Below are positions 41,742 through 54,996 of a stretch of DNA of 60,652 nt, in pieces. Position 1 is the first letter of the stretch. Each line of letters opens with the position of its first letter. Source of the DNA: Nitrospirota bacterium. GTDB lineage: Bacteria > Nitrospirota > Thermodesulfovibrionia > Thermodesulfovibrionales > UBA1546. A program made the position numbers and the translations under genes. The notes beneath the pieces were generated by a model. It saw only the letters and a program-made list of their open reading frames with translations, was not told the DNA's origin and ran no database searches. The stretch covers positions 1-60,652 of the forward strand of contig JAPLLK010000092.1 of NCBI GenBank assembly GCA_026387575.1, in the 5' to 3' direction.

Positions 41742-41828
41742 GCCGGAGTGGCGGAATTGGTAGACGCAAGGGACTTAAAATCCCTCGTCGGCAACGGCGT
41801 GCCGGTTCAAATCCGGCCTCCGGCACCA
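41742..41828 (+). tRNA. tRNA-Leu (anticodon UAA), CCA encoded
   Basis: Cloverleaf read by eye: acceptor GCCGGAG/CTCCGGC, anticodon stem AGGGA/TCCCT with loop CTTAAAA, a long variable arm, and T-arm GCCGG-TTCAAAT-CCGGC. Confidence 0.9.
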
Positions 41829-41834
41829 TATAAA

Positions 41835-42071
41835 TCAATGGGTTACGGGATTCCATGTCCTTCTCTCTTTCTCCTTAAAATGGCCAATTGTAACCTTTTT
41901 GTAACCATTTGAGATCATTTCAAGTTTTTCCTTCGTCTCTTTGTGCATCATTGTAACTTTTTCAGAAGCCCTTCTTAAGTCTGCCTCATTCACAATGTTA
42001 TACCTGTCAAAGACTGAGCGCGTCTTATGTCCTGAAATCTTCATAGCAACCTTTTCTGGGACTCCAGCCAC
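41835..42071 (-). pseudogene. tyrosine recombinase (phage integrase) C-terminal fragment
   Basis: The 78-codon ORF contains only the terminal catalytic block ...[26 protein letters not shown] (His...Tyr). The upstream frame closes at a TGA within about 30 nt, so no N-terminal or core domains remain. Confidence 0.75.
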
Positions 42072-42190
42072 AAAGTCACATCTCTGAATGGGCAGAATGA
42101 TTCACGATTTCGGGGTTAGGACGATATTCTTAAAAATCTATCTTCTACAGAGTGTGCGCGCCATTTAGCACGGCCGCTCCATCAGCTTTA

Positions 42191-42571
42191 TTAGGCAGCG
42201 TTTATATAACTTTTTATAGAAAGCTTAAATTTTTCTATTTCTTTTTTTAATCTACTTGGAGCTACTTTCCTGCCATTTTTTCCCAAAAGCGGAAAATAAA
42301 AATATTCATCTATCCATTTTTTCTCTTTTGCGTATTTCAAGATAGTTATGTAACTGCTTTCCTTATCTGACTTTGCTTTTTTACTATTATCACGTTTTTC
42401 CCAAATAAATAAAATTTTTTTATATTTTCTGGGAGCCAGCATTAATTTGAATAAATCTTTTTCTATCATGTCAATATTACATTTAAATTCAATTATAATT
42501 TCATTCCTATTTGATTTGATGAATAAATCAGCATCTTTTTTGATTATATTTTTTGCACCATTTATTTTCAT
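42191..42571 (-). CDS. hypothetical protein with possible PD-(D/E)xK-like motif
   Basis: 126 aa in a very AT-rich segment. DADLFIKSNRNEIIIEFKCN resembles D...ExK. Its start overlaps the upstream stop (ATGA). Confidence 0.45.
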   Translation of the reverse strand: MKINGAKNIIKKDADLFIKSNRNEIIIEFKCNIDMIEKDLFKLMLAPRKYKKILFIWEKRDNSKKAKSDKESSYITILKYAKEKKWIDEYFYFPLLGKNGRKVAPSRLKKEIEKFKLSIKSYINAA

Positions 42572-42819
42572 TTTTTTTGAGGGAATATTTCTTCTATTTT
42601 TTCATTGTTTTTAATAAATTCATTATAAATCCACATTGAAAACACTCTTTCGCTAAACTTAGCCCCACCACCTTCTCCATCATGACTGCTTTTATCCCAA
42701 TAACATTTTGCAAATCTTTTAAAACTGTTCACAGTAAATACCTTATTTGAATTTTTTGATAGAAATTCTACTGCGGGTCTATATTCTTTAATATGATCCA
42801 ATAAATGCTTATCGTTCAT
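42568..42819 (-). CDS. hypothetical protein
   Basis: 83 aa from ATG 42819, preceded by AAGGAGAG. The longer track ORF would overlap the WG-repeat gene. Confidence 0.4.
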   Translation of the reverse strand: MNDKHLLDHIKEYRPAVEFLSKNSNKVFTVNSFKRFAKCYWDKSSHDGEGGGAKFSERVFSMWIYNEFIKNNEKIEEIFPQKK

Positions 42820-42863
42820 TTTTACTCTCCTTAACATTTTATTTTGGCATAAATTACAGCATT

Positions 42864-43937
42864 TTATGCGGTAGGCTCCCAAATATATTTACCGGTCTTA
42901 TCAATATACCCCATATAAGCAATCTCTGCTATGTCATCTGAACGTCGTTTATTTCTCTGATATTGATTTTCGAAGCCAACCCATGCCAATCCATTCTCAA
43001 AGCTCCATGCTGTATCATACTTTGGTTCAATAACTATTTTACCTTGCCGGTTAATAAATCCGTCTTTGCGGTCAATTTTAACAGAAGCCATACCGTGAGA
43101 AAAGCCAAAAGCATTTTCATATTTCGGCTCTATTACTATTTCTCCGGTTTTATTAATAAACCCCCACTTGCCCTCAAGCTTTACTGCTGCCAAGCCATCA
43201 TTGAATGCTTTAACTTCCTGAAACCGCTTGTTACCGATAATTATCCTGCCTGTTCTGTCAATATACGTATCAGGATACCATCGTTTACCTACACGTGCTA
43301 ACCCTTCGTTAAAATTGAAGGCTGATTTATATTGCGGCTTGATAACAAACTTGCCACCCTTGACTATGTAGCCCCATTTTTTGCCTAATAACACCTCAGC
43401 TAATCCCTCTGAAAAAACAACAGGCATGCGACTCTGCGGTTTAATGACAATTCTACCCTCTTTGTCTACACACCCCCATTTCTTATTAACCATCACAGAG
43501 ACTAAACCCTCAGAAAAATAGTATGCCTCTTCAAATTGAGGCTCTATAACCATTGCGCCTGTTTTATTGATAAAGCCCCATTTCCCATTTGGCCCTTTCA
43601 CTGGCGCAAGACCTTCAGAAAAAATGGTGAACGATTCAAACTGCGGCTTTAATACCATTCTGCCGGTCTTATCAATAAATCCGTATTTGTTTTTTACTTT
43701 GACGGTTGCCAACCCATCGGAAAAATTACATGCTGAGTCAAACTGCGGATTTATGACAACAGTGCCTTTTGAATTAATATACCCTCTTTTGCCATCAACA
43801 GTGACGGGGAATAACGGGGCTTCTATTGAATCTTTCTTAATTGCGGCTAAAGCAAAATCGCTATAGGTTAAAGCAACTCCTGTTATAGCCAACCCTCTTA
43901 AAAAATCTCTTCTGCTAAGCATAATTCCTCCTTGCAA
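42864..43937 (-). CDS. WG-repeat (KWG-type) protein with twin-arginine signal peptide
   Basis: 357 aa with the SRRDFLRGLAITG Tat motif, followed by about 9 repeats of the pattern GxINxxGxxVIxPQFxxAxxFSEGLAxV...KWGF. Confidence 0.8.
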   Translation of the reverse strand: MQGGIMLSRRDFLRGLAITGVALTYSDFALAAIKKDSIEAPLFPVTVDGKRGYINSKGTVVINPQFDSACNFSDGLATVKVKNKYGFIDKTGRMVLKPQFESFTIFSEGLAPVKGPNGKWGFINKTGAMVIEPQFEEAYYFSEGLVSVMVNKKWGCVDKEGRIVIKPQSRMPVVFSEGLAEVLLGKKWGYIVKGGKFVIKPQYKSAFNFNEGLARVGKRWYPDTYIDRTGRIIIGNKRFQEVKAFNDGLAAVKLEGKWGFINKTGEIVIEPKYENAFGFSHGMASVKIDRKDGFINRQGKIVIEPKYDTAWSFENGLAWVGFENQYQRNKRRSDDIAEIAYMGYIDKTGKYIWEPTA

Positions 43938-43977
43938 TTGTCCGATTTAAAATTTAATTAGCCTTATTCTAATATTG

Positions 43978-44004
43978 CACCTCCCCCATGGAGTGTCCGG
44001 GGTT
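43978..44004 (-). promoter_or_regulatory. island motif copy a (CACCTCCCCCATGGAGTGTCCGGGGTT, plus-strand reading)
   Basis: One of four copies of a 27-bp motif, 40 nt upstream of the WG-repeat gene start. Confidence 0.6.
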
Positions 44005-44035: not shown

Positions 44036-44611
44036 TCAGCCTTTCCCTAAAGCAGACCTGTCCGCTGCTGTTAATGCCTTTTCTGCCCTAACCTCAAAAA
44101 CAACCGGCTTTACCGCAACCCTGTTCTCTGCCTTCCATCCCGGGCGTAAGACCTCTATCTCAAAGCCTTCTATAGTTTCATCCCCGAGGGATTCAGGATA
44201 GTCCTCGAACTCATAGTCTTTTGCGGAATCCCTGCTTACTCTTAATCTCTCCCCTTTGGCCTTAAAAGGCTCTATCCCGAGTGTATTTGAAAGGGTGTCA
44301 TATACTCCGAGCAGGACAGCGTTCTGCTCTATATTTCCGTCATCTTTCCCTGATTCGACCCTGTTTTTATGCTCAATAAGGGCATGGAGGATGTCTCCGT
44401 TAACAGAGCGGCACAATCTGTTTATGATCTCCTTTTTTACCTCGAAAGAGGTCATCTCCCTCAGGTCGCGCAGTGACGCCATGAATCCATTTGCCTGTAT
44501 GTCAGCCTTTCTAATGTACCCTTCGAGTTTTCTCAGGGTATTCCATACGTCCTTCGGCCTCTTCCTGATTGTTGTCGAGCGAGATTTTTTCTTTGTCTTA
44601 TTCTTTTTCAC
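44036..44611 (-). CDS. hypothetical protein, possibly a GrpE-like nucleotide-exchange factor
   Basis: 191 aa from GTG 44611, preceded by GGGAGGAGGAG. It has a basic/helical N-terminus and a C-terminus ...LGIEPFKAKGERL...IEVLRPGWKAENRVAVKPVVFEV that resembles the GrpE pattern G.e.i...G..f....h.A...v..GY....r..r.A.V.V. This is a by-eye match only. Confidence 0.5.
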   Translation of the reverse strand: MKKNKTKKKSRSTTIRKRPKDVWNTLRKLEGYIRKADIQANGFMASLRDLREMTSFEVKKEIINRLCRSVNGDILHALIEHKNRVESGKDDGNIEQNAVLLGVYDTLSNTLGIEPFKAKGERLRVSRDSAKDYEFEDYPESLGDETIEGFEIEVLRPGWKAENRVAVKPVVFEVRAEKALTAADRSALGKG

Positions 44612-46979
44612 GCAGACTCTCCTCCTCCCATATCCCTGATTCAGGCCCGGCAATGAGCCTATCAGGGCTTACGTTAAGTACCTTGGAGTTTTTTAAATCC
44701 CTGAGCTTTTTACCTGCTATCTGAGCATCTTCATAATCACCGAGCGCCCTGTTTGCGCCTTCAAGGAAATCAAGATACCTCTCAGTCTGTGGATACTGGG
44801 AGCACAGCCTCCTTAATATCTGCCTCGCCATCTTGTATTCCTTAATAGCCTGCGCCTCATTTCCTGATTTCCTGTAAGCTTGGCCGAGCCAATAATAGGC
44901 GGCATAGTGCTCTGAATCAATATCAAGTGCCTGCCTTAATCTTGAAATGCCCTCATCAATCTTTCCGCAGTCAGCAAGCTGGCAGCCATAATTTGTTGCA
45001 TATATGACATTGTCTGGTGCCATCTCAAAAGCCTTCCTGAAATATTCGAGGGCCTTTTCTTCTTCCCCCCTATCTTCATAGCAGAGCGCAACAATATTAT
45101 TAAGGCCTGCTGTATTTATGCCCTTATCCTGAAGCCTCTCGATTATCTCCACGGCTGCGCCTGTATTTCCTCTGAGCCTTTCCCTGTTTGAAAGCTCTAT
45201 CATCAACTCAGGGTCAGCCTTCTGACGCCCTTTCTTCATTTCAGCCGCCTTCTTCCATAACTCGCCTGCGGCGATGTCCTCAGGGGTATTAATGTTATGA
45301 GTCCACGGATGGCTTAGCTCAGCATCTATCTTTATATCAGGCTTATACACAAGGCCTGCGGTAAACTTCATAACCTTGTTCCTGTCTATATGCAGTCCTA
45401 TGCTCACAGGCTCACCCTTTTTAATGCCTTCAGGCAGCGAAAGCTTCAGGTTGCTTATCACCTTTCCGTTTCCCGAGTATATGGATATCCCGACGCTTTC
45501 AAGATTGTCCTTTGGGATGCAGAAATTATCGTTAACAGAAAAGTCTCCGTTGCCGGGAAAGGGAAGCTCAGTCCCAGCAGCCAGAAGTTTCTCCCTTTTC
45601 AGTCCCAGGGTGAAGATTCCTATCTCGTCATTTACTATGGGGATGACAACAGGCCTTTCATTTTTATGCAGATAGTAGCACTGAATTGCAGCACCCTTTG
45701 AAACAGAAAGGTCAAGGTCAGGCGCATCAAAGAACCTCGCATTCCTGAAGCTATCGAATGTCTCAAAGGCCCTTCTTATGATTGGGTTATGGCAGCTCCC
45801 TCCGTTAAAGATAAACGCGTCAATAGCTTCCGGCGATAGGTTCGCCTTATCAAGTGCATTAAATACAGGGCCGAAGAATGAGTATATGAAATAATCATCA
45901 GCAATCCTGCAGGAACCATCAAAATTATACGAGACAAACGGCTTCATAAGTTCCAGAAACCTCTCTGCGCTTGTAGTGCCGGATATCTTCCTGGTCTTTA
46001 TATCAAGGGCTGAGATATGAAAAGCATCGACTGACCATTGCTGCTTGCAGGTCCTGCCCCTGCCTCCTGAAATCATCATGCATATGCTTTCCTTAAGACT
46101 TTTTGCCGTAATTTTAAGCCTGAACCTGAGCTCCCTTTTAACTTTTTCTGGGAGGGAACCGAAATCAATGGAATTTTTTTCGCAGTATAAAGGAAGAATC
46201 TCCGCTTCAACGATATGAAGATCTATGTTATCCCCGCCAAGCTTCTCGTAATTGCTTATCGACCTGTTTTTGATGTTAAGGCCTATGCCGTTACTGACCG
46301 CATCTGCATCATATGATGCTTCAAAAACAGAGATATCGCATGTGCCTGCCCCAAGGTCGAACATAACGGTCTTTCTTGGTCTCTTCATATCAAGATTCGA
46401 GTCGAGCTTTTGGTGGCAGGCAGTATGTATGAATGCTGCAACAGGCTCATCAAGGAGGCCACCGTCATCAAGCGTCAGGCCTGCCAGCCTTGCAGCCTTT
46501 ATTGTGTCCTCGCGCTGGTTGTGGGCAAAGGAGGCGGGCACTGTTATCACAACATGGGATTTCTTTGGAGATATGCCTGTCTCTTTTTCTGCTACCCTTA
46601 TAAGCTTTTTTATTATCTCTGCGGAAACCTCAACAGGAGAGATTATCTCAGGATGGACTGAATCCTCGTATATCTTCAGAGTTCCCATGTCAGACTTGAC
46701 AGACACAAACAGGTTTTCGAAAGGTTTAGCCCTTTTGCCAGCGGCTTCCTCCAATGCCTCAAACCCTGTTATGACCTTCTTAGAGTTCTGCCTATGCTCT
46801 ATGTAGACAACAGAAGGCAGCCTCTGCCAGTTATGAAAGAGTGTTGCTCCTGCATGCGGATTGAACTTTATCGTTACCGGCTCTATATAAGTGCGATGAC
46901 TGCTGTTCCTGCCTTCAACAAGGTAACTTATGGATGAACTGCTTGTTCCAAGATCAATTCCGAAATAGACCTTGCTCAT
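44598..46979 (-). CDS. Hsp70-family ATPase (NBD + SBD-beta-like) fused to C-terminal TPR repeats
   Basis: 793 aa from ATG 46979 (RBS AAGGAGG). Hsp70 motifs are GIDLGTSSS, VVITVPASFAHNQREDTIKAARLAGL, LLDEPVAAF, VMFDLGAGTCDISVFE, GGDNID and FNGGSCHNPIIRRAFE. An SBD-beta-like stretch and about 5 TPR units (...ALEYFRKAFEMAPDN..., ...YYWLGQAYRKSGNEAQAIKEY...) follow. Confidence 0.85.
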   Translation of the reverse strand: MSKVYFGIDLGTSSSSISYLVEGRNSSHRTYIEPVTIKFNPHAGATLFHNWQRLPSVVYIEHRQNSKKVITGFEALEEAAGKRAKPFENLFVSVKSDMGTLKIYEDSVHPEIISPVEVSAEIIKKLIRVAEKETGISPKKSHVVITVPASFAHNQREDTIKAARLAGLTLDDGGLLDEPVAAFIHTACHQKLDSNLDMKRPRKTVMFDLGAGTCDISVFEASYDADAVSNGIGLNIKNRSISNYEKLGGDNIDLHIVEAEILPLYCEKNSIDFGSLPEKVKRELRFRLKITAKSLKESICMMISGGRGRTCKQQWSVDAFHISALDIKTRKISGTTSAERFLELMKPFVSYNFDGSCRIADDYFIYSFFGPVFNALDKANLSPEAIDAFIFNGGSCHNPIIRRAFETFDSFRNARFFDAPDLDLSVSKGAAIQCYYLHKNERPVVIPIVNDEIGIFTLGLKREKLLAAGTELPFPGNGDFSVNDNFCIPKDNLESVGISIYSGNGKVISNLKLSLPEGIKKGEPVSIGLHIDRNKVMKFTAGLVYKPDIKIDAELSHPWTHNINTPEDIAAGELWKKAAEMKKGRQKADPELMIELSNRERLRGNTGAAVEIIERLQDKGINTAGLNNIVALCYEDRGEEEKALEYFRKAFEMAPDNVIYATNYGCQLADCGKIDEGISRLRQALDIDSEHYAAYYWLGQAYRKSGNEAQAIKEYKMARQILRRLCSQYPQTERYLDFLEGANRALGDYEDAQIAGKKLRDLKNSKVLNVSPDRLIAGPESGIWEEESLREKE

Positions 46980-46998
46980 ATTGCCTCCTTTGTTGCAA

Positions 46999-47349
46999 TC
47001 ACCATGCCGCGATTGCTGGATTTTCAAACGGAGCTGCCATGAAATTCCTGCGCGGCATGTATCTTTTGAGTTTCTTTTTTATCTGCCTGAGCCCTTTTTT
47101 ATTCCTGTAGGCTGTGATCAGGCATTTCCCGTCATTAGAGACAACAAGGGTTGTGCCCTCAAGTTTTGCGTACCTGTCATCCCTGAGATACCCTGATGGG
47201 ATGTCGTGCCTTCCTAGAAACACAAAAAGAGCGCCTGCCCTGTGTATCTTCTGCCCGAATCTAAGCAAGAATTCTATGTTCTCTCCTCTGATGTTACGCT
47301 GTGAGGCCCTCTCGAAAGCATGTTTGCTGAATCTTTCGAACATCTCCAT
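46999..47349 (-). CDS. DUF4258-like (BECR-fold RNase toxin-type) domain protein
   Basis: 116 aa. FSKHAFERASQRNIRGENIEFLL...GTTLVVSNDGKCLITAYRNK matches my recollection of the DUF4258 pattern (S.HA.eR...R.I......ViTvYr). The RBS is AAGGAGGG. Confidence 0.55.
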   Translation of the reverse strand: MEMFERFSKHAFERASQRNIRGENIEFLLRFGQKIHRAGALFVFLGRHDIPSGYLRDDRYAKLEGTTLVVSNDGKCLITAYRNKKGLRQIKKKLKRYMPRRNFMAAPFENPAIAAW

Positions 47350-47358
47350 GCCCTCCTT

Positions 47359-47520
47359 TTAAACTTTTCTTTTTTCGATTATCTTCCTGAGTTCATTAGC
47401 AGTTACATGAGCTTTAATCTCATAAAAGCGTACGGTTCTGTGCCACCTTACAACGCTGACAAACATGAAGACGCTGGATATAACAAATAGAATCACTATG
47501 ATGCTTAGAATTGCTGTCAT
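47359..47520 (-). CDS. small single-pass membrane protein (53 aa), first gene of the Hsp70-TPR operon
   Basis: Below the ORF-track cutoff. My translation is MTAILSIIVILFVISSVFMFVSVVRWHRTVRFYEIKAHVTANELRKIIEKRKV. A strong RBS AAGGAGGA precedes it, and it ends 9 nt before the next start. Confidence 0.45.
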   Translation of the reverse strand: MTAILSIIVILFVISSVFMFVSVVRWHRTVRFYEIKAHVTANELRKIIEKRKV

Positions 47521-47573
47521 TTTGTCCTCCTTTTTTGGTTAAAAATTAATTTCATGTTTTAAGTATAAAGGGG

Positions 47574-47600
47574 CACCTCCCCCAAGGGATGTCTGAGGTT
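47574..47600 (-). promoter_or_regulatory. island motif copy b (CACCTCCCCCAAGGGATGTCTGAGGTT)
   Basis: 53 nt upstream of the small-TM gene start. It lies within a 45-nt stretch identical to copy d. Confidence 0.6.
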
Positions 47601-47723: not shown

Positions 47724-48797
47724 TCAGTGTTTTTCTGCCATTCTCTGTTTTACCGCTTGCTGCAACTCTTTCAATGGCTCATTTTCGGGCTCCAAAGCAA
47801 GCCCTTTTTTGATAACTTCATCTGCTTCATCAAGTCTCCCTAAATCTATTGCTGTTTCCGCAAGATTTTCATACAGCCCAACAACGTCAGGAATCTTTTC
47901 AACTCCTTCTTTGGCTATCATATACGCCTCATGGCGCAAATCGGCATCCATATATGAACAGCAGAGGCCTCCGTAAACGTTGTCTGATTCAAGTCCCATT
48001 TCTTTTGCTGTCCTGTAATAGCAAATCGCTGCCCACGGTTCTTTCCTCTCCAGATTGCAATATCCCATTTCAATAAGATACCGAGGGTCATCAGGGACTA
48101 TTTCAAGCAGTTCTGTCAGCACTTTGAATGCCTCTTCATGGTATCCAAGAAGATTAAGAGATAGCGCCTTGTTATACAACAAAGGCGTAATATCATTTAC
48201 ATCGCTTGCAAGTGCTTGGTCAAAGTATCTCAATGCCTCATACAGATCATCCATCCTGTAAAACAATAAACCCATTAAATTGAGCAATGCTGAAGATTCA
48301 GGATATTTTTCAAGGGCCTCCTCAAGTAGTTCACTTGCCTTTTTATACTCTTCTCTCTCGATAAGCTCTCTCGTGATTCCATAATAGCGTTGCTCGCCAT
48401 GAGATTTCCATGGAAGCGAATTATATATGCTCATTGCCTTTTCATATTCCTCTTGGTCGAGATGCAATTCTCCGATTTGGATTAAAAGATCGTTAAGTTT
48501 GCTCTTGAGTGTTTTCTTTTTTTTGGGCTCAGTTGTTTCTTCCAGTTTTTCCCTGAGCTTCTCAACCCTTGCGTTCAACTTTCTGACTTCCCTCTCTGCC
48601 TTTGCCGTATTCTTGTCCATTATCAATCCTCCTTTATTTCTCATTTTACTTTCTAAATATTTTTGACGTGCTTGCCTAACAGCTTCTTTTGATACTGGCT
48701 CGTCTCCACCAAGAGACTCTATATAAGAGTCCAATGCCTCACCATACTGTTCGTCTGTTAAATGTCTAACTGGCGGGTGTTTTCTGTTGGTTATCAT
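47724..48797 (-). CDS. coiled-coil + TPR repeat protein (paralog 1)
   Basis: 357 aa with a charged helical N-terminus followed by TPR units. It is clearly paralogous to 52844-53839 (for example LLYNKALSLNLLGYHEEA vs ALYNKALSLNNLGYYEDA, and PDDPRYLIEMGY vs PDDPEYLVEMGY). Confidence 0.8.
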   Translation of the reverse strand: MITNRKHPPVRHLTDEQYGEALDSYIESLGGDEPVSKEAVRQARQKYLESKMRNKGGLIMDKNTAKAEREVRKLNARVEKLREKLEETTEPKKKKTLKSKLNDLLIQIGELHLDQEEYEKAMSIYNSLPWKSHGEQRYYGITRELIEREEYKKASELLEEALEKYPESSALLNLMGLLFYRMDDLYEALRYFDQALASDVNDITPLLYNKALSLNLLGYHEEAFKVLTELLEIVPDDPRYLIEMGYCNLERKEPWAAICYYRTAKEMGLESDNVYGGLCCSYMDADLRHEAYMIAKEGVEKIPDVVGLYENLAETAIDLGRLDEADEVIKKGLALEPENEPLKELQQAVKQRMAEKH

Positions 48798-48842
48798 AAT
48801 TACCCCCTGAAATAAAATGATTATATTTTTATTGTAACGTCA

Positions 48843-48869
48843 GACATCCCCCATAGAGTGTCCGAGGTT
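48843..48869 (-). promoter_or_regulatory. island motif copy c (GACATCCCCCATAGAGTGTCCGAGGTT)
   Basis: 45 nt upstream of the TPR paralog 1 start. Confidence 0.6.
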
Positions 48870-49466: not shown

Positions 49467-51146
49467 TTACTGTTTCTTTGACAAAGGAGGACCTGGCCAA
49501 ATCTTCATGGCTACTCTAAGAAGCCTTTCCCCTCTCTTTTCGATTTCTGTCTTTGTCCATGTATCGTATTTCGCAATAATCTTTGTCAGCCAGTAAGGAC
49601 TTTTTTTGTAGCCTTTCTTTTTTTCTTTAAAACCGTGATTCCCCAATGTGGGATTATATGCGGTGAGACTTAGGTTTCCCATAACATGCAGGCTCTTCTT
49701 CAAATCAGATAAGGAGTTAGAATCCCAATCGTTCATTTTTGCCTGCTGTGGAAACACGTGCTCAATCTGGATAGATTTGCCCAACTGCAATTCTTTATCA
49801 GCAGACTTGTAACGTTCTATACTTTCTAAAGCAAATCTGGCAGTTGCAGGTGCGGTTGTATAAATAGAGGATGAGACAAAGCATGTTCTGAACTGATCAT
49901 CATCTGGCCACTTTTCATCTTTCAGGATTTTAGATAGGTTCTTACCCTTCTTATCAATTAGTTTCTTGGCAATTCGAGCAAAGACTTGGTTTAGATCACG
50001 TGACACTTTGCTATTAAACGCTCGCCGAACAACGAACGACTCAATGTATTGCAAAGCCCGTTCTAAATCCTTGATAGTTATTTCTTCATTTGCCAGAGAA
50101 CGATATAACACCAGCAAAACGGGATAGTAAGTTGTCATCTTTAAGTCTACAAGTCTTTGCAGTTGCGAACGCAGCTTTTTTCTTTGCTCAAGTTCAGGAT
50201 TGAGAAATTTGCAATATTGCCCGGCTTCATTGAGAAGCATTTTTAATTTATCCTCAACGTGACCATCATGGAAAAAAGACCGTAACTCCCTGAATAAATC
50301 AGTTGTGCTGATATATTTTTCTTTTTGAACGACTAGAACAGCCCGAAGAAAGTCTCTCAATATTTTTTGGAATTCAGCTTTTTTAGCCTTCCCATTACCG
50401 TCAGATATACTTTCCTCTATCTTATCCTCTATCCCTCGCCAGTAAGTATTATTTAGCCTTTCTTGTTCCTTCCCATTTCTTACAAGGCTTAAAATAAAAT
50501 TACGGGCAAGATCAGACTGGGTCAACGGAACGCCAGCATAGTTAATTGATTCAAATATGGCGTGAGCATCATCATTATCAGTCAGAACAATTTCCACAAA
50601 TACCATGCCCGACAATACGGTTTTCAGAAAGTTGTTGAAGTGGCTCGGTTTTTTCCCTTTTGTATTCTCAATATGGTTCTGAATTCCTTCATGGAAAAAA
50701 TCATAACCTGCTCTGACTTGTTTATGCCGAACTTTCTGAAGTCCGTCTGGATTACCTAAAAGACGATTAAATGCATCCTGATCATGGAGCGATGGTTTAA
50801 ATCTTGGATTTCCTTTTATTGTAAGATGTCTTTCTATTTCTCTTGTTTTAGCAGTGGCATATTTATGGGACAACGACCTCAACACTGTCAAAATAATTGT
50901 GAATGTTGCCAAACGTTGCTGGCCGTCAATTATTATAAAATGACGGTTTCTGGAATCGGGTTTAAAAACCAATGTACCCATAAAATGCCGTTTGCCGGTT
51001 CCATCCATAATCTTCGTAATGTCATCCAGCAACTGTACGAAATTCTTTTGCTTCCACGCATACCGTCTTTGAAATGGTGGAACGATAAATACATTCTTAT
51101 TCTTATGGCCTATCAGCTTTTCTATAGTGCGCTCTTCAACCTTCAT
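49467..51146 (-). CDS. DUF262/DUF1524 protein (GmrSD-type, putative modification-dependent Type IV restriction nuclease)
   Basis: 559 aa. N-terminal DUF262 motifs are FIVPPFQRRYAWKQKNFVQLLDDI and IIIDGQQRL. The C-terminal His-Me/HNH-like DUF1524 motifs are IEHVFPQ...GNLSLTAYNPTLGNHGF. Confidence 0.85.
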   Translation of the reverse strand: MKVEERTIEKLIGHKNKNVFIVPPFQRRYAWKQKNFVQLLDDITKIMDGTGKRHFMGTLVFKPDSRNRHFIIIDGQQRLATFTIILTVLRSLSHKYATAKTREIERHLTIKGNPRFKPSLHDQDAFNRLLGNPDGLQKVRHKQVRAGYDFFHEGIQNHIENTKGKKPSHFNNFLKTVLSGMVFVEIVLTDNDDAHAIFESINYAGVPLTQSDLARNFILSLVRNGKEQERLNNTYWRGIEDKIEESISDGNGKAKKAEFQKILRDFLRAVLVVQKEKYISTTDLFRELRSFFHDGHVEDKLKMLLNEAGQYCKFLNPELEQRKKLRSQLQRLVDLKMTTYYPVLLVLYRSLANEEITIKDLERALQYIESFVVRRAFNSKVSRDLNQVFARIAKKLIDKKGKNLSKILKDEKWPDDDQFRTCFVSSSIYTTAPATARFALESIERYKSADKELQLGKSIQIEHVFPQQAKMNDWDSNSLSDLKKSLHVMGNLSLTAYNPTLGNHGFKEKKKGYKKSPYWLTKIIAKYDTWTKTEIEKRGERLLRVAMKIWPGPPLSKKQ

Positions 51147-51542: not shown

Positions 51543-52730
51543 TCACTCAAAATCTGCGTAGATCTCGCCAAAATTTATCCCTGCGATATTGGCCCTGCCG
51601 TAGCTGTTCCTGAATGACAGTTTTGCCTCCTGAAACTCCTGATTCGGGCTTCCGTTTCTTATTGCAGCAGAGGCCTCAATGAAAGCTGAAAGGCTGTCGG
51701 CAGCCTTGACAATATCTCCATCTCTTGGATTGAATTTGCTTTCGTTATATTTATCACTTATTCCCCTGCTTTTCATCTTCTCAGTTTTATTATCTATCGT
51801 TATAATGTTGTCGAATTCATTCTCCGTGAACATTCTTATCTCAGGATGCCAGTCTTCCGGAATAAGGCCGTAAACCTCTTTTTCCATCTGTTCTTTTTCA
51901 TATTGCTTTATCAGCTCGCTCAAGCCGTCAATAGACCTTTTGACAGGGGAGATTATGTCCCTTGTGAGCACCTCCGGAAGGTCATGGAATAAGCCTGTGA
52001 AATAGTTATTTGCGCATCTTCTCTCGCAGGCATTTATCTCAAGCGAAAACAAATAAGATAAGATGGCAACATAAAGCGAATGACCTATTACGGAAGTCTT
52101 TGGAATCCTGTGGAGTTTTGCCCATCGTGCCTGAAATCTTAGCTGACCGCACAGGTTAATGAAGTTCCTGTACCTGACATGCTCTTTTAATTGAGCCATG
52201 CCCTTCAGGTCTGAGTATTTCTTCTGCGCTTCTGCCAATGACTGTTTAATTGCCGCTATCTCATATCCTTCAGGATTTGTACGCTCTATGATGTTAAATT
52301 CCCATTTGGTTGCATACAAATGCGCTGCGCTCAGAATTCTTTTATTTAATGTATCCTCTGTATTCAGGAAATAATCCTGAAATCTTTTGCAGAAGCCTTC
52401 TCCCAGCGGAGAGATTAATGGTTTTATTTCATTGTACGCCCATTCGTTCAACTGTCTGTATTTATCAGTATCCTGCTTTATCTTATAAAATATCGGGGGC
52501 TTCAAATCTGTAATGACAAGCCTCTGTAGAAGCTCAAAGATTCCACCTTCAATAATCTCTATCCAGTTGAAACCTTTTGTGTTTTCCTCGAACTTGCCAA
52601 GGAAATATGCAATTATCATTTTATGAGCCTGCTTGTCGAGTTCAATCATCTCCACAGGCCGGACTTTATCGTTCCACCTCTGCATATAGGCAGCGTCAAA
52701 GATTTTGAGAAGCAGTGCCTTTCGTATCAT
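51543..52730 (-). CDS. HD-domain phosphohydrolase
   Basis: 395 aa with ...VIGHSLYVAILSYLF... and ...GLFHDLPEVLTRDI..., the H...HD metal-binding signature. Confidence 0.8.
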   Translation of the reverse strand: MIRKALLLKIFDAAYMQRWNDKVRPVEMIELDKQAHKMIIAYFLGKFEENTKGFNWIEIIEGGIFELLQRLVITDLKPPIFYKIKQDTDKYRQLNEWAYNEIKPLISPLGEGFCKRFQDYFLNTEDTLNKRILSAAHLYATKWEFNIIERTNPEGYEIAAIKQSLAEAQKKYSDLKGMAQLKEHVRYRNFINLCGQLRFQARWAKLHRIPKTSVIGHSLYVAILSYLFSLEINACERRCANNYFTGLFHDLPEVLTRDIISPVKRSIDGLSELIKQYEKEQMEKEVYGLIPEDWHPEIRMFTENEFDNIITIDNKTEKMKSRGISDKYNESKFNPRDGDIVKAADSLSAFIEASAAIRNGSPNQEFQEAKLSFRNSYGRANIAGINFGEIYADFE

Positions 52731-52843: not shown

Positions 52844-53839
52844 TCATTTTTTAGGTCTAAATATCCTCATATTGCGTAACTTTTTAATTAGAGCGGCTAC
52901 GATTAAAATCTCTTTAATCGGTGGTTTTTTGCCATTATCAGGATTATTCTCTTCATCCTCAATTTCCTTGAGCAATTCCATCAAGTCATTGTCCTCGGGA
53001 AATACTTCAAGTCCTTTTTTAAGGATATCTTTTGCTTCATCAATCCAGCCCATTTCCTTATAAATGCTGCTAAGGTCTCCATACAAACGGGAATGGCTGT
53101 CAGGCAATTCTTTGATTCCTTCAATTGCTATTTCTAAGGCATCATTTTTTAAACCCATATTATAATATGACCAGAAGAGCCCATCATAAACTGACCAGTT
53201 CAAGTATCCGGCGTCCTTTGCTTTTTTATAAAAAGGTATCGCTTCTTCAGGATATCCTCTGCAAATATCGATATATCCCATTTCAACAAGATATTCCGGG
53301 TCATCAGGATATTTTTCAATAAGGTCTTTAATGATAGGTTCCGCATCTTCATAGTAGCCGAGGTTGTTCAAACTCAGTGCCTTGTTATAAAGCGCATTCC
53401 TGCCATCCGGCGTAAATTTTACGGCTTGCTCGAAATATTTTAATGCCTCAAAATCATTATCCAGCCGCTGGTGCAGACATCCCATTGCAATAAGAAGCGG
53501 GACTGATTCAGGAAAACGACTCAATCCCTTTCCCAGCAATTTTCTGGCTTCATTATAATATTCCATTTCTATAAGTGCCCTTGCCATTCCGGTAAACTTC
53601 ATTTCTGCGTGAGTTCTCCATGAGAGCGTCTGATACATTGCAAGCCCATTTTCATTTTCTCCTGCATCAAGAAGCGCCCATGCAAGCTGATTCTTTAGTT
53701 CGGCAATACAATTCTTATATTCTCTGCCGGCACAATTGCCGGTATTCTCGCCTAAGCCCTTTTGCGCGCGGGAAAGCCTTCTTTTTAGTTTTTTTATTTC
53801 TTGATAAATGACTTTCAGTCTCGGGTCTTTTTTGTTCAT
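52844..53839 (-). CDS. coiled-coil + TPR repeat protein (paralog 2)
   Basis: 331 aa, paralogous to 47724-48797 over most of its length. Confidence 0.8.
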   Translation of the reverse strand: MNKKDPRLKVIYQEIKKLKRRLSRAQKGLGENTGNCAGREYKNCIAELKNQLAWALLDAGENENGLAMYQTLSWRTHAEMKFTGMARALIEMEYYNEARKLLGKGLSRFPESVPLLIAMGCLHQRLDNDFEALKYFEQAVKFTPDGRNALYNKALSLNNLGYYEDAEPIIKDLIEKYPDDPEYLVEMGYIDICRGYPEEAIPFYKKAKDAGYLNWSVYDGLFWSYYNMGLKNDALEIAIEGIKELPDSHSRLYGDLSSIYKEMGWIDEAKDILKKGLEVFPEDNDLMELLKEIEDEENNPDNGKKPPIKEILIVAALIKKLRNMRIFRPKK

Positions 53840-53857: not shown

Positions 53858-53884
53858 GACCTCCCCCAAGGGATGTCTGAGGTT
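53858..53884 (-). promoter_or_regulatory. island motif copy d (GACCTCCCCCAAGGGATGTCTGAGGTT)
   Basis: 18 nt upstream of the TPR paralog 2 start, between the WYL gene stop and TPR2. Confidence 0.6.
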
Positions 53885-53985: not shown

Positions 53986-54996
53986 TCAGTAAATTTTTGC
54001 TATCTTTTCAGCCTCTGTCTTAATCAATTCCCTCAGTGCCTCCGGCTTCACAACCTCCACCCCTGCGCCGTGCTTAAGTATCTCCCTTTCAATCTCTGTA
54101 AAATCAGAAACAGGGAAGCTGAGTTCAAGGGAGCCGTCATCGAGAATTTTCGTTTTCTGGTCTTTGTGCCATATCTGGTCATATATCCATTTTGCCTTCT
54201 CCGGCGTAAATCTCAGAATAACCTGTTTAGCAGATCCACCTTTATAAAGCCCAAATGAGGACTGGAAGTAGTCTTTGAAGTTAAAGTTATTTTTTATTGC
54301 AAAATATCTGTCAGCTATCTTTATTTCAGAAATCCTGTTAAGTCTGAAATCCCGTATCTCGCTCCTCATATAGCAGTACCCGATTAGATGCCATGTGCCC
54401 ATATAATTAAAAAGATGATACGGATCAACTGTCCTCTCTGTCTTATCTTTCCTCGCGGGAGAGCTGTACTTGAATGTCAGCGACATTTTTTTCATGCATG
54501 CCTCAAGCACAGTCTTGAATGTATCTTCAGGAGCAGGTGTGTACTCTATAAGGTGGAACGATAGGCATTCATCCATCTTATCAGGGCCTGAGGTATGTTT
54601 TTTAATAAAAGACGTTATCTTGTCAACTGCTGATGTAATCTCTTTTTCGATTCCGCTTCCGCTCATGTCCTGAAGTAGCCGCCTTGCAACAAGCAGAGAT
54701 GTGAGCTCGGATGAAGACAGGTATGTTGAAGGAATGGAGAATGTGTCATTCTCGTAATAATATCCTTTTTTAGACTGGTCATAAAGAAGTGGGGCCTTGA
54801 GTCTCTCCCTCATGAACTCGGTGGTGCGCTGGGCTGTCTTTACTGATATCTCAAACTTTCTGGCAAGGCTTGTGGTGTTGGGAAATTTCTTCCCCTTGAC
54901 CTGACGGTCGAACCATAAAAAACGCTCATATGAGAGTATATCGCCCATATCATGCTCGGACAAAGACATTTTAAGGAATTTACTATAATCTTTCAA
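53986..54996 (-). CDS. HTH-WYL-WCX transcriptional regulator (BrxR/CapW/PafBC-like)
   Basis: The N-terminal HTH is FPNTTSLARKFEISVKTAQRTTEFM. The WYL domain is ERTVDPYHLFNYMGTWHLIGYCYMRSEIRDFRLNRI. The C-terminus is GAGVEVVKPEALRELI. The start is TTG 54996 or ATG 54969. Confidence 0.85.
   Translation of the reverse strand: MKDYSKFLKMSLSEHDMGDILSYERFLWFDRQVKGKKFPNTTSLARKFEISVKTAQRTTEFMRERLKAPLLYDQSKKGYYYENDTFSIPSTYLSSSELTSLLVARRLLQDMSGSGIEKEITSAVDKITSFIKKHTSGPDKMDECLSFHLIEYTPAPEDTFKTVLEACMKKMSLTFKYSSPARKDKTERTVDPYHLFNYMGTWHLIGYCYMRSEIRDFRLNRISEIKIADRYFAIKNNFNFKDYFQSSFGLYKGGSAKQVILRFTPEKAKWIYDQIWHKDQKTKILDDGSLELSFPVSDFTEIEREILKHGAGVEVVKPEALRELIKTEAEKIAKIY

Follow-up and report, generated by a model that had tools for sequence, protein, structure and literature searches.

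What does an Hsp70 gene do inside a tRNA-linked genomic island, packed among small genes? Bacterial Hsp70s are textbook housekeeping chaperones. The question is raised by a stretch of 60,652 nt from a Nitrospirota bacterium (contig JAPLLK010000092.1, assembly GCA_026387575.1), here called the window, in which four minus-strand open reading frames (ORFs) are packed at 47520-44036 with a strong Shine-Dalgarno sequence before each. In the order of reading they encode a 53-aa protein, a DUF4258-like protein, a 793-aa Hsp70 carrying tetratricopeptide repeats (Hsp70-TPR), and a 191-aa GrpE-like protein. A first-pass annotation proposed that the four genes together form one undescribed conflict system. 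That proposal is narrowed here, as the conserved unit is the pair of Hsp70-TPR and GrpE-like genes, not the set of four. The reading favored below, held at about even confidence, describes the cassette as a conserved two-gene Hsp70/exchange-factor switch of a conflict system, joined by lineage-specific add-ons and regulated by a WYL protein.

Architecture of the Hsp70-TPR protein

The third gene of the cassette (44598..46979, minus strand) encodes a non-canonical Hsp70 of 793 aa, in which TPR repeats stand in for the lid and the catalytic residues are intact. The Pfam HSP70 profile (PF00012, E=1.3e-25) matches residues 6-509 over profile positions 2-444 of 599, and since coverage stops at 444 the lid is not matched. 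No SBD-alpha helical lid over the substrate cleft (SBD, substrate-binding domain) was found in the protein. Its position is taken by about 180 aa of TPR repeats, approximately five to six in number, at residues 590-768 according to Pfam and AlphaFold2; a dozen TPR families match residues ~590-765 in Pfam. The Hsp70 motifs quoted in the first-pass annotation are indeed in the sequence (GIDLGT, VITVPA..., DEPVAA, DLGAGTCDIS, and GGSCHNP), and its reading of a TPR array in the place of the lid holds. In an alignment of 33 homologues with 24-65% identity, residues D9, K95, E178, D208, and T213 are invariant, and the ATPase is apparently active.

Structural modeling, which the first-pass annotation had recommended, resolved the domains that it expected, including SBD-beta. 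The AlphaFold2 model reaches a predicted local distance difference test (pLDDT) value of 88.5 and a predicted template modeling score of 0.87. It comprises a nucleotide-binding domain (NBD) at residues 1-440, SBD-beta at 447-553 with beta strands at 453-553 modeled at pLDDT ~90, a helix at 566-583, and TPR helices at 590-768. Foldseek searches with this model retrieved full-length DnaK, BiP, and Ssb, with E-values down to 3e-28. The protein also contains a hydrophobic stretch, VVIPIV, followed by IGIFTLG...LLAAGTELPFP, which we read as equivalent to the linker of DnaK and the first part of its SBD-beta, on resemblance rather than a residue-level alignment. NCBIfam equivalogs for DnaK and HscA score only ~100 bits against cutoffs of 648-1019, and scores so far under the cutoffs indicate that the protein is neither DnaK nor HscA.

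Behind the TPR array stands a motif conserved throughout the clade, L[IV]AGP[DE]SG[IF]W, followed by acidic residues; in the window it reads LIAGPESGIW (44598-44680). Tail residues 771-780 are modeled at pLDDT ~88 in beta-bridge states, and the model suggests that the conserved tail may dock on its own protein as a pseudo-substrate or TPR ligand. As a separate observation, the tail of the A-clade Hsp70 (GP..G[IF]W-EDE[IL]F) resembles EEVD-type ligands of TPR clamps. In phage genomes, only partial DnaK-like matches were found and no full-length Hsp70-TPR protein.

A divergent GrpE-like partner

The fourth gene (44036..44611, minus strand; 191 aa) starts with a GTG at 44611 that overlaps the Hsp70 stop by 14 nt, and this start is translationally coupled to the stop. 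The AlphaFold2 model of the protein (pLDDT 82) has GrpE topology, with a basic N-terminal tail, a long helix at residues 19-53, three helices at 56-111, and a C-terminal beta domain at 113-173. The elements that define the GrpE fold, namely the long helix, the helical bundle, and the C-terminal beta domain, are all found, with moderate support. The 12 best Foldseek matches in the PDB are all GrpE proteins aligned over nearly their full length, with probabilities up to 0.96, and come from E. coli, Geobacillus, Thermus, M. tuberculosis, and human mitochondria.

Profile comparison points the same way. By hhalign, the 191-aa family aligns to a three-sequence GrpE alignment with P=0.001-0.003, colinear over 92-133 columns; scores of 25-30 compare with 13.6 for a reversed control and <=15.4 in 30 column-shuffled controls (31 controls in total). 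Within this alignment, VEVLRPGWKAENRVAVKPVV is matched to a 21-letter stretch of GrpE. A HMMER profile search of 1.84 billion representatives recovered 23 family members and no canonical GrpE. Because the AlphaFold2 model, Foldseek, hhalign, and the genomic coupling to an Hsp70 gene agree, a GrpE-derived fold is considered likely for the 191-aa protein. The resemblance to GrpE claimed in the first-pass annotation is upheld at the level of the fold, with a weak profile signal from hhalign, but finds no sequence match in Pfam, NCBIfam, or the PDB. The protein is predicted to serve as a private nucleotide-exchange factor of Hsp70-TPR. An apparent fusion of Hsp70 and GrpE-like sequences in locus L017 would have offered Rosetta-stone evidence but was rejected as an artefact, produced by an open frame that overlaps in DNA of high GC.

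Conservation of the pair and its sister clades

A protein search returned 324 Hsp70-TPR homologues, and among the best 120 of these, on which the architecture was judged, the arrangement of Hsp70 plus TPR in ~800 aa prevails. When one genome was scanned for each GTDB species, 504 related stretches could be confirmed. In the nearest clade, a GrpE-like gene lies directly 3' of the Hsp70-TPR gene, mostly overlapping it, in all 23 loci (the window, L001, L003, L004, L006, L008-L025 minus L022, and L027), with weak GrpE-like matches in L021 (E=2e-4) and L027 (E=3e-7). These loci span Nitrospirota, Verrucomicrobiota (including Kiritimatiellia), Planctomycetota, Acidobacteriota, and Bdellovibrionota, in addition to the metagenome contig L006, and the phyletic distribution of the pair is patchy. 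All-against-all clustering of the neighbors at the 23 loci yielded no third conserved gene; WYL and SNF2 genes recur, in five loci each. The idea that the four genes act as one system is therefore not borne out by conservation, as only the pair is kept at every locus (23/23), the DUF4258-like gene accompanies it at three, and the 53-aa gene was found in near-identical strains only.

More distant Hsp70-TPR proteins (25-30% identity, L026-L087) are paired instead with a ~410-aa ATPase similar to UvrD and GajB, in 41 loci. The ~190-aa and ~410-aa partners were considered as one family and rejected, since hhalign found no relation. Pairs with the UvrD-like partner (B-type) occur on plasmids NZ_CP022543.1 (L098) and NZ_AP025298.1 (L099), in one case with flanking IS elements (IS6 and IS256), and a third hypothetical gene often accompanies the B-type pair. 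Approximately 35 of the 41 UvrD-like helicases end in an acidic-hydrophobic tail (e.g., ...DDLRDLF or ...SDLDFL). By analogy with EEVD, such tails could be candidate ligands of the TPR clamp.

Two kinds of fusion were also noted among Hsp70-TPR proteins, with AAA+ domains (PF00004; P0053, P0055, P0066, and P0079) and with response-regulator receiver (REC) domains (P0092, P0105, and P0106). Fusions of this kind suggest a role in signaling or switching over general chaperoning.

No defense system catalogued in PADLOC corresponds to these genes. The PADLOC check recommended in the first-pass annotation was run on the cassette proteins, and no system in PADLOC v2.0 was matched; the best hits of the Hsp70 were PDC-M61B (E=0.0056) and PDC-S28 (E=0.064), and the other three proteins had none. 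A B-clade Hsp70 is likewise without a PADLOC match. The Hsp70-TPR/GrpE-like pair was not described in the literature searched on Hsp70, DUF4258, and phage defense. The claim that no named system has this composition is in agreement with these results.

The DUF4258-like and 53-aa genes as add-ons

The first gene of the cassette (47359..47520, minus strand; ribosome-binding site (RBS) AAGGAGG) encodes 53 aa with an N-terminal transmembrane helix at residues ~3-24 and a basic amphipathic tail, in accordance with the single-pass membrane protein originally described. It is also called in three other assemblies, all from near-identical strains. No homologue exists in any other related locus, and no family match was found in Pfam, PADLOC, or NCBIfam. 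Codon differences between strains amount to 10 synonymous and 8 conservative non-synonymous changes, with frame and length kept, a pattern compatible with a real but young gene.

The DUF4258-like gene follows (46999..47349, minus strand). Translation from the first ATG gives 116 aa, and from the second, at 47343, 114 aa (MFERF...). The second start is more likely, as RBS spacing, the N-termini of homologues, and independent gene calls of 113-114 aa agree on it. The match to PF14076 (E=2e-5) is marginal, at 25.1 bits against a cutoff of 25.0, and the catalytic-site motif accompanies this borderline DUF4258/Ntox49 profile match. The protein carries both SKHAFERASQRNI and LITAYR, and the motif S-x-HA-x-x-R-x-SQRNI is kept across 14 homologue clusters, which are the only ones in 5.8 billion proteins and mark a rare subfamily. 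A precomputed PF14076 match exists in 5 of the 14 clusters, and NCBI names one further cluster DUF4258. The domain assignment of the first-pass annotation is accordingly retained for its motif and above-threshold score, but the match itself is borderline. DUF4258 has been assigned to the BECR fold of RNase toxins, where it overlaps with Ntox49 and its activity is putative (PMC11980606; bioRxiv 10.64898/2026.08.28.747851).

The intergenic distances along the cassette are 9-15 nt, 19 nt (between the DUF4258-like and Hsp70-TPR genes), and -14 nt. Independent assemblies with an identical Hsp70 carry the same four gene calls, and the arrangement is kept across strains that differ by ~12% in DNA over the 53-aa gene and its flanks. 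Given the small gaps and the single upstream motif, the four genes probably form one transcript. A scan of the cassette for sigma-70 promoters and terminators performed no better than on shuffled sequence.

Despite this compact layout, the DUF4258-like gene adjoins the pair in only 3 of the 23 loci (the window, L001, and L004) and is missing from the other 20. This, together with the restriction of the 53-aa gene to near-identical strains, identifies both as lineage-specific additions, set between the upstream motif and a two-gene core. Elsewhere, the DUF4258-like gene keeps other company. A small partner of 35-80 aa comes after its homologues in L001, L090, and L096, it heads SNF2-helicase operons in L096 (4001-7427) and L097 (215-3657) behind a common 28-nt motif, and it occurs in other contexts (L088), including non-defense ones. 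It appears to behave as a promiscuous leader gene of defense-type operons and not only as a toxin of toxin-antitoxin (TA) systems. No homologue of its small partner was found in the window, nor an adjacent antitoxin or immunity gene; the 53-aa membrane protein encoded upstream is unrelated to that partner.

These observations lend weight to the foremost alternative, according to which the genes are juxtaposed without coupling. The pair would then be one module, the 53-aa and DUF4258-like genes an unrelated, partly decayed TA-like element or a generic leader gene that came to lie between promoter and module, and the toxin not under chaperone control. The contexts just described speak for it, as do the strain-specific 53-aa ORF and the arrangement in L004, where the 28-nt motif stands between the DUF4258-like and Hsp70-TPR genes and so argues against obligatory coupling of the two. 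Against it stand the gaps of 9-19 nt under one upstream motif, the maintenance of the arrangement across the ~12%-divergent strains, and the conserved H/R/Q-R-N motif of the DUF4258-like protein, which is without signs of decay. Moreover, the rare DUF4258 subfamily adjoins the rare Hsp70 family three independent times, and such repeated juxtaposition, combined with the missing partner, leaves room for local functional coupling. We regard mere juxtaposition as unlikely, though it is the alternative that survives best. Hsp70 may control the toxin at the window locus.

A shared 28-nt motif and putative WYL control

A 28-nt motif, AACCTCAGACATCCCTTGGGGGAGGTGC, lies ~55 nt upstream of the 53-aa gene (47573..47600, minus strand), with a -10-like TATACT after it. 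A second copy (43977..44004, minus strand) starts the unit of the WG-repeat gene (43937) and marks the 3' boundary of the cassette; further copies on the same strand stand at 48842-48869 and 53862-53879. The consensus is AACCTC[A/G]GACA..C..TGGGGGA[G/T]GT with a -10-like hexamer behind it. Three minus-strand operons have the motif ~45-70 nt ahead of their starts, and a fourth has a core match ~25 nt ahead of its own. Four copies were observed in the window against 0.2 expected by chance. The description of four tightly packed minus-strand genes behind an island motif is borne out by these copies, together with the ORFs, their RBS, and the independent gene calls.

Related loci carry the same element. 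It heads the Hsp70-TPR gene in L004 (5931-5946) and DUF4258-led operons in L096 (3934-3949) and L097 (149-164). The WYL regulators of the window and L096 are 90% identical, and in both the motif comes directly after the gene and is followed by different cargo. The sequence of strain L092 becomes homologous to the window ~150 nt ahead of the 53-aa gene, with the motif inside the homologous part, and differs further upstream. An Rfam scan of the island found tRNA alone, and the motif therefore belongs to no known RNA family.

The motif is a candidate promoter/operator of a WYL regulon of the BrxR/CapW-like kind, and it may also mark cassette boundaries. Its position directly downstream of the WYL gene and its occurrence at four island operons make WYL control of cassette expression probable.

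Island context and neighborhoods

The island starts at a tRNA-Leu(UAA) gene (41742-41828) and an integrase fragment (41835-42071). This 78-aa fragment resembles the C-terminus of a tyrosine recombinase/integrase by eye and has no Pfam match. The region 42001-43000 has 31.6% GC and two overlapping ORFs (126 and 104 aa) without a family match. The tRNA gene, integrase fragment, and low-GC stretch are probably the island boundary and foreign DNA. From there the order is the low-GC ORF pair, a WG-repeat protein, the cassette, a TPR protein, GmrSD, an HD/YfbR-like protein, a TPR paralogue, and WYL/WCX, with chemotaxis genes beyond the island.

The WG-repeat protein (42864-43937, minus strand; 357 aa) has a twin-arginine translocation (TAT) signal and eight WG-containing beta repeats (PF14903, E=3.5e-89); internal direct repeats in its DNA mirror those of the protein. 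GmrSD (49467-51146, minus strand) is a type IV restriction enzyme family member, Orf5/HEC-06-like in PADLOC (E=4e-105). The HD/YfbR-like protein (51543-52730, minus strand) bears an N-terminal extension of ~190 aa, and the WYL/WCX regulator is encoded at 53986-54996 (minus strand). Two paralogous TPR-only proteins (47724-48797 and 52844-53839, minus strand) share 40% identity over 282 aa, each with the 28-nt motif before its gene. TPR-only proteins also neighbor the Hsp70-TPR pair in L001, L006, and L013.

Across the clade, the neighbors include WYL regulators (5 loci), SNF2 helicases of the HmaA/DrmD type (5), DrmMI (2), LmuB (2), and type IIG restriction-modification enzymes (2), in addition to Cap4 nuclease, NERD, and GajB-like helicases. 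No J-domain or isc family is among the listed neighbor families of the pair, and McrB/McrC families are not among the neighbors in the window or the clade. These neighborhoods carry the signature of defense islands, and the context in the window is a tRNA-linked defense island, not a housekeeping dnaK-dnaJ-grpE operon, as the first-pass annotation had maintained. The neighborhood survey that it called for produced a divided outcome, in that defense-typical neighbors were found but the DUF4258-like and 53-aa genes do not generally co-occur with the pair.

In Nitrospirota relatives, Metallophos phosphoesterases come after the pair (L001:8994-13476, L003:9598-10320, and L004:8911-9543). In L001, the pair is also followed by a 271-aa protein, GIY-YIG-like at its C-terminus by eye, and an SbcC-like AAA_23 protein. 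The Metallophos, GIY-YIG-like, and SbcC-like genes are possible candidates for variable effectors.

Neighbors of another kind bring in a second alternative, a specialized proteostasis or assembly chaperone with its own exchange factor, comparable to HscA or HscC, which would serve TPR, WG-repeat, or secreted clients or act under stress, the mobility of the island being incidental. ECF sigma factors, trypsin-like proteases, and TPR-only proteins stand near the pair in several loci, and such neighbors could indicate an envelope or proteostasis role instead. The TAT-signal WG-repeat protein of the window, the TPR-only proteins (5-6 loci), and the association of ECF sigma factors with trypsin-like proteases fit this explanation. 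So do an ATPase, linker, and SBD-beta that are as intact as those of genuine chaperones, and a dedicated exchange factor, which is classic chaperone logic; HscA and HscC are likewise sporadic and horizontally transferred (PMC8215388). Yet no conserved client gene or J-protein recurs across pair loci, variable defense-typical genes and WYL regulators dominate the neighborhoods, and the sister clades pair with GajB-like helicases. The promoter motif is, moreover, common to other island operons downstream of the WYL regulator. A proteostasis role is considered improbable on this evidence.

Relation to known systems

The Hsp70-TPR/GrpE-like module is a variant of Hsp70/exchange-factor pairs and of chaperone-based conflict modules. 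With DnaK-GrpE it shares an Hsp70 NBD with catalytic residues, the linker, and SBD-beta, as well as an adjacent GrpE-fold gene of similar length (191 versus 197 aa) whose product aligns with GrpE in colinear fashion, beginning at the long helix and reaching the beta domain. It differs in that TPR repeats stand instead of the lid, the partner is invisible to GrpE sequence models, no DnaJ/HrcA context exists, and the pair resides in a defense island, is patchily distributed, and has a tiny partner family (23 representative clusters). Neither the equivalog cutoffs nor a dnaJ/grpE or isc operon place it with the housekeeping DnaK/HscA proteins. A review of bacterial Hsp70s recognizes only DnaK, HscA, and HscC (PMC8215388).

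The closest domain arrangement is found in CnuD/CnuCD of the type III CoCoNuT systems, McrBC-type systems in which an Hsp70-like NBD/SBD is fused to HEAT-like repeats (PMC11090510). In both cases, an Hsp70 NBD/SBD is combined with an alpha-helical repeat array in predicted anti-phage operons, as a proposed targeting or sensing module. However, the ATPase motifs of CnuD are reported as degenerate, and CnuD is associated with homologues of McrB/McrC, HEPN RNases, and coiled coils. The Hsp70 studied here has invariant catalytic residues, repeats of the TPR kind, and a GrpE-like partner, and no McrBC genes lie nearby; both the association with McrB/McrC (DUF2357) and the degenerate ATPase that characterize type III CoCoNuT are absent.

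GTPase-centric conflict systems (GAP1-N2 and DO-GTPase/tubulin/HSP70) recruit HSP70 and GrpE (Kaur et al. 2020, PMC7159879). Common features are TPR/DnaJ modules in associated proteins and the concept of chaperone-based effector thresholding. Those systems, which occur mostly in Actinobacteria/Firmicutes, have a TRAFAC GTPase at their center, in some cases together with tubulin, and carry TPR on a separate FNIII protein and a recognizable GrpE, whereas here no GTPase is present, TPR is fused to Hsp70, and GrpE is highly divergent.

For the DUF4258-like protein, the comparison is with DUF4258/Ntox49 BECR toxins of type II TA and polymorphic toxin systems, with which it shares the PF14076 match and the conserved His/Arg motif. 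The differences are the threshold score, the window's lack of an adjacent antitoxin or immunity gene, and the recurrence of this subfamily as first gene of defense-type operons behind a common motif. Parallels with STAND/Avs sensors, drawn in the first-pass annotation, extend to the layout of an ATPase plus TPR but no further, as the ATPase here has the actin/Hsp70 fold and no P-loop.

The toxin-antitoxin-chaperone (TAC) analogy of the first-pass annotation fares worse. Chaperone and toxin genes share one operon in both cases, for phage sensing in TAC, but the TAC chaperone is SecB-like and acts on the chaperone addiction (ChAD) tail of an antitoxin, and here neither SecB nor an antitoxin is present and the toxin gene is not conserved as part of the module. 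A strict TAC-like system, in which Hsp70-TPR would be antitoxin or stabilizer against a DUF4258 RNase, the 53-aa membrane protein a second effector, and the four genes a unit in this lineage, is the least probable alternative: the operon is tight, the small DUF4258 partner is missing exactly where Hsp70-TPR comes next, and TAC systems reportedly show that phage can be sensed through toxins under chaperone control (bioRxiv 10.1101/2024.02.24.581848), but a SecB-like chaperone and an antitoxin with a chaperone-addiction element are both absent from the cassette, most pair loci are without any toxin, and in L097 a DUF4258-like gene stands beside SNF2 helicases without the small partner, so that partner loss need not imply a substitute.

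Proposed mechanism and its weight

In the reading favored here, a two-gene Hsp70/exchange-factor switch with add-ons, a specific protein, be it a phage product or an associated effector, would be bound by the TPR array, SBD-beta, or both. Hydrolysis of ATP would then lock the Hsp70-TPR complex as a clamp, and the clamp would be reset by the GrpE-like partner, so that the response would have a threshold and be reversible. One outcome would be the direct sequestration or remodeling of a phage protein. In another, variable effectors would be licensed, namely the DUF4258 RNase in the window, Metallophos or SNF2 proteins at other loci, and, for the sister clade, the UvrD-like helicase. As its small partner is missing at this locus, the DUF4258 protein may be a client or effector held in check by Hsp70. 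Such a chaperone switch would be analogous to the chaperone/co-chaperone regulators proposed for MoxR-vWA and GTPase/HSP70 systems.

Several results weigh against this reading. At the sequence level, the GrpE assignment is faint: Pfam gives no GrpE match (PF01025) at E<=10 in the window protein or 18 relatives, and NCBIfam and PDB sequence profile searches with the 191-aa protein found no GrpE either. The profile searches recommended in the first-pass annotation hence returned HSP70, TPR, and a marginal DUF4258, but not PF01025. Foldseek E-values for GrpE range from 1.4e-3 to 9e-2 with low TM-scores, which are expected since the model is an elongated monomer, and the hhalign probability against GrpE is 11-21%. 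The near-threshold PF14076 score, the absence of the DUF4258-like gene from most pair loci, the motif placement in L004, and the sigma factor and protease neighbors count on the same side. The two-gene core contains no recognizable effector and has no J-domain gene nearby, and a defense role of the pair is proposed through guilt by association.

Implications for chaperone biology and bacterial immunity

The sister clades open a broader and more tentative prospect, to which we give somewhat less than even credence. Hsp70-TPR proteins with a private partner, either GrpE-like or a GajB-like UvrD, may represent an unrecognized and widespread immune family. The chaperone cycle would act as sensor and switch in place of a P-loop NTPase, with TPR recognizing an acidic C-terminal tail or a phage protein, a phage factor being sequestered or variable effectors such as the DUF4258 BECR RNase licensed, and WYL control exerted through a common operator. 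Recent work reportedly describes phage sensing through the host chaperone network, involving DnaJ and bNACHT25, and a link to it is possible.

The divergent GrpE would provide a useful natural experiment on the minimal sequence conservation of an Hsp70 exchange factor, and the strict two-gene core renders the hypothesis directly testable in a heterologous host. If the proposal is true, a chaperone-cycle switch would join the STAND, MoxR-vWA, and GTPase switches, and a fourth type of bacterial Hsp70, lid-less and TPR-fused, with a cryptic GrpE of its own, horizontal spread, and residence in defense islands, would broaden chaperone biology as well as the list of immune mechanisms.

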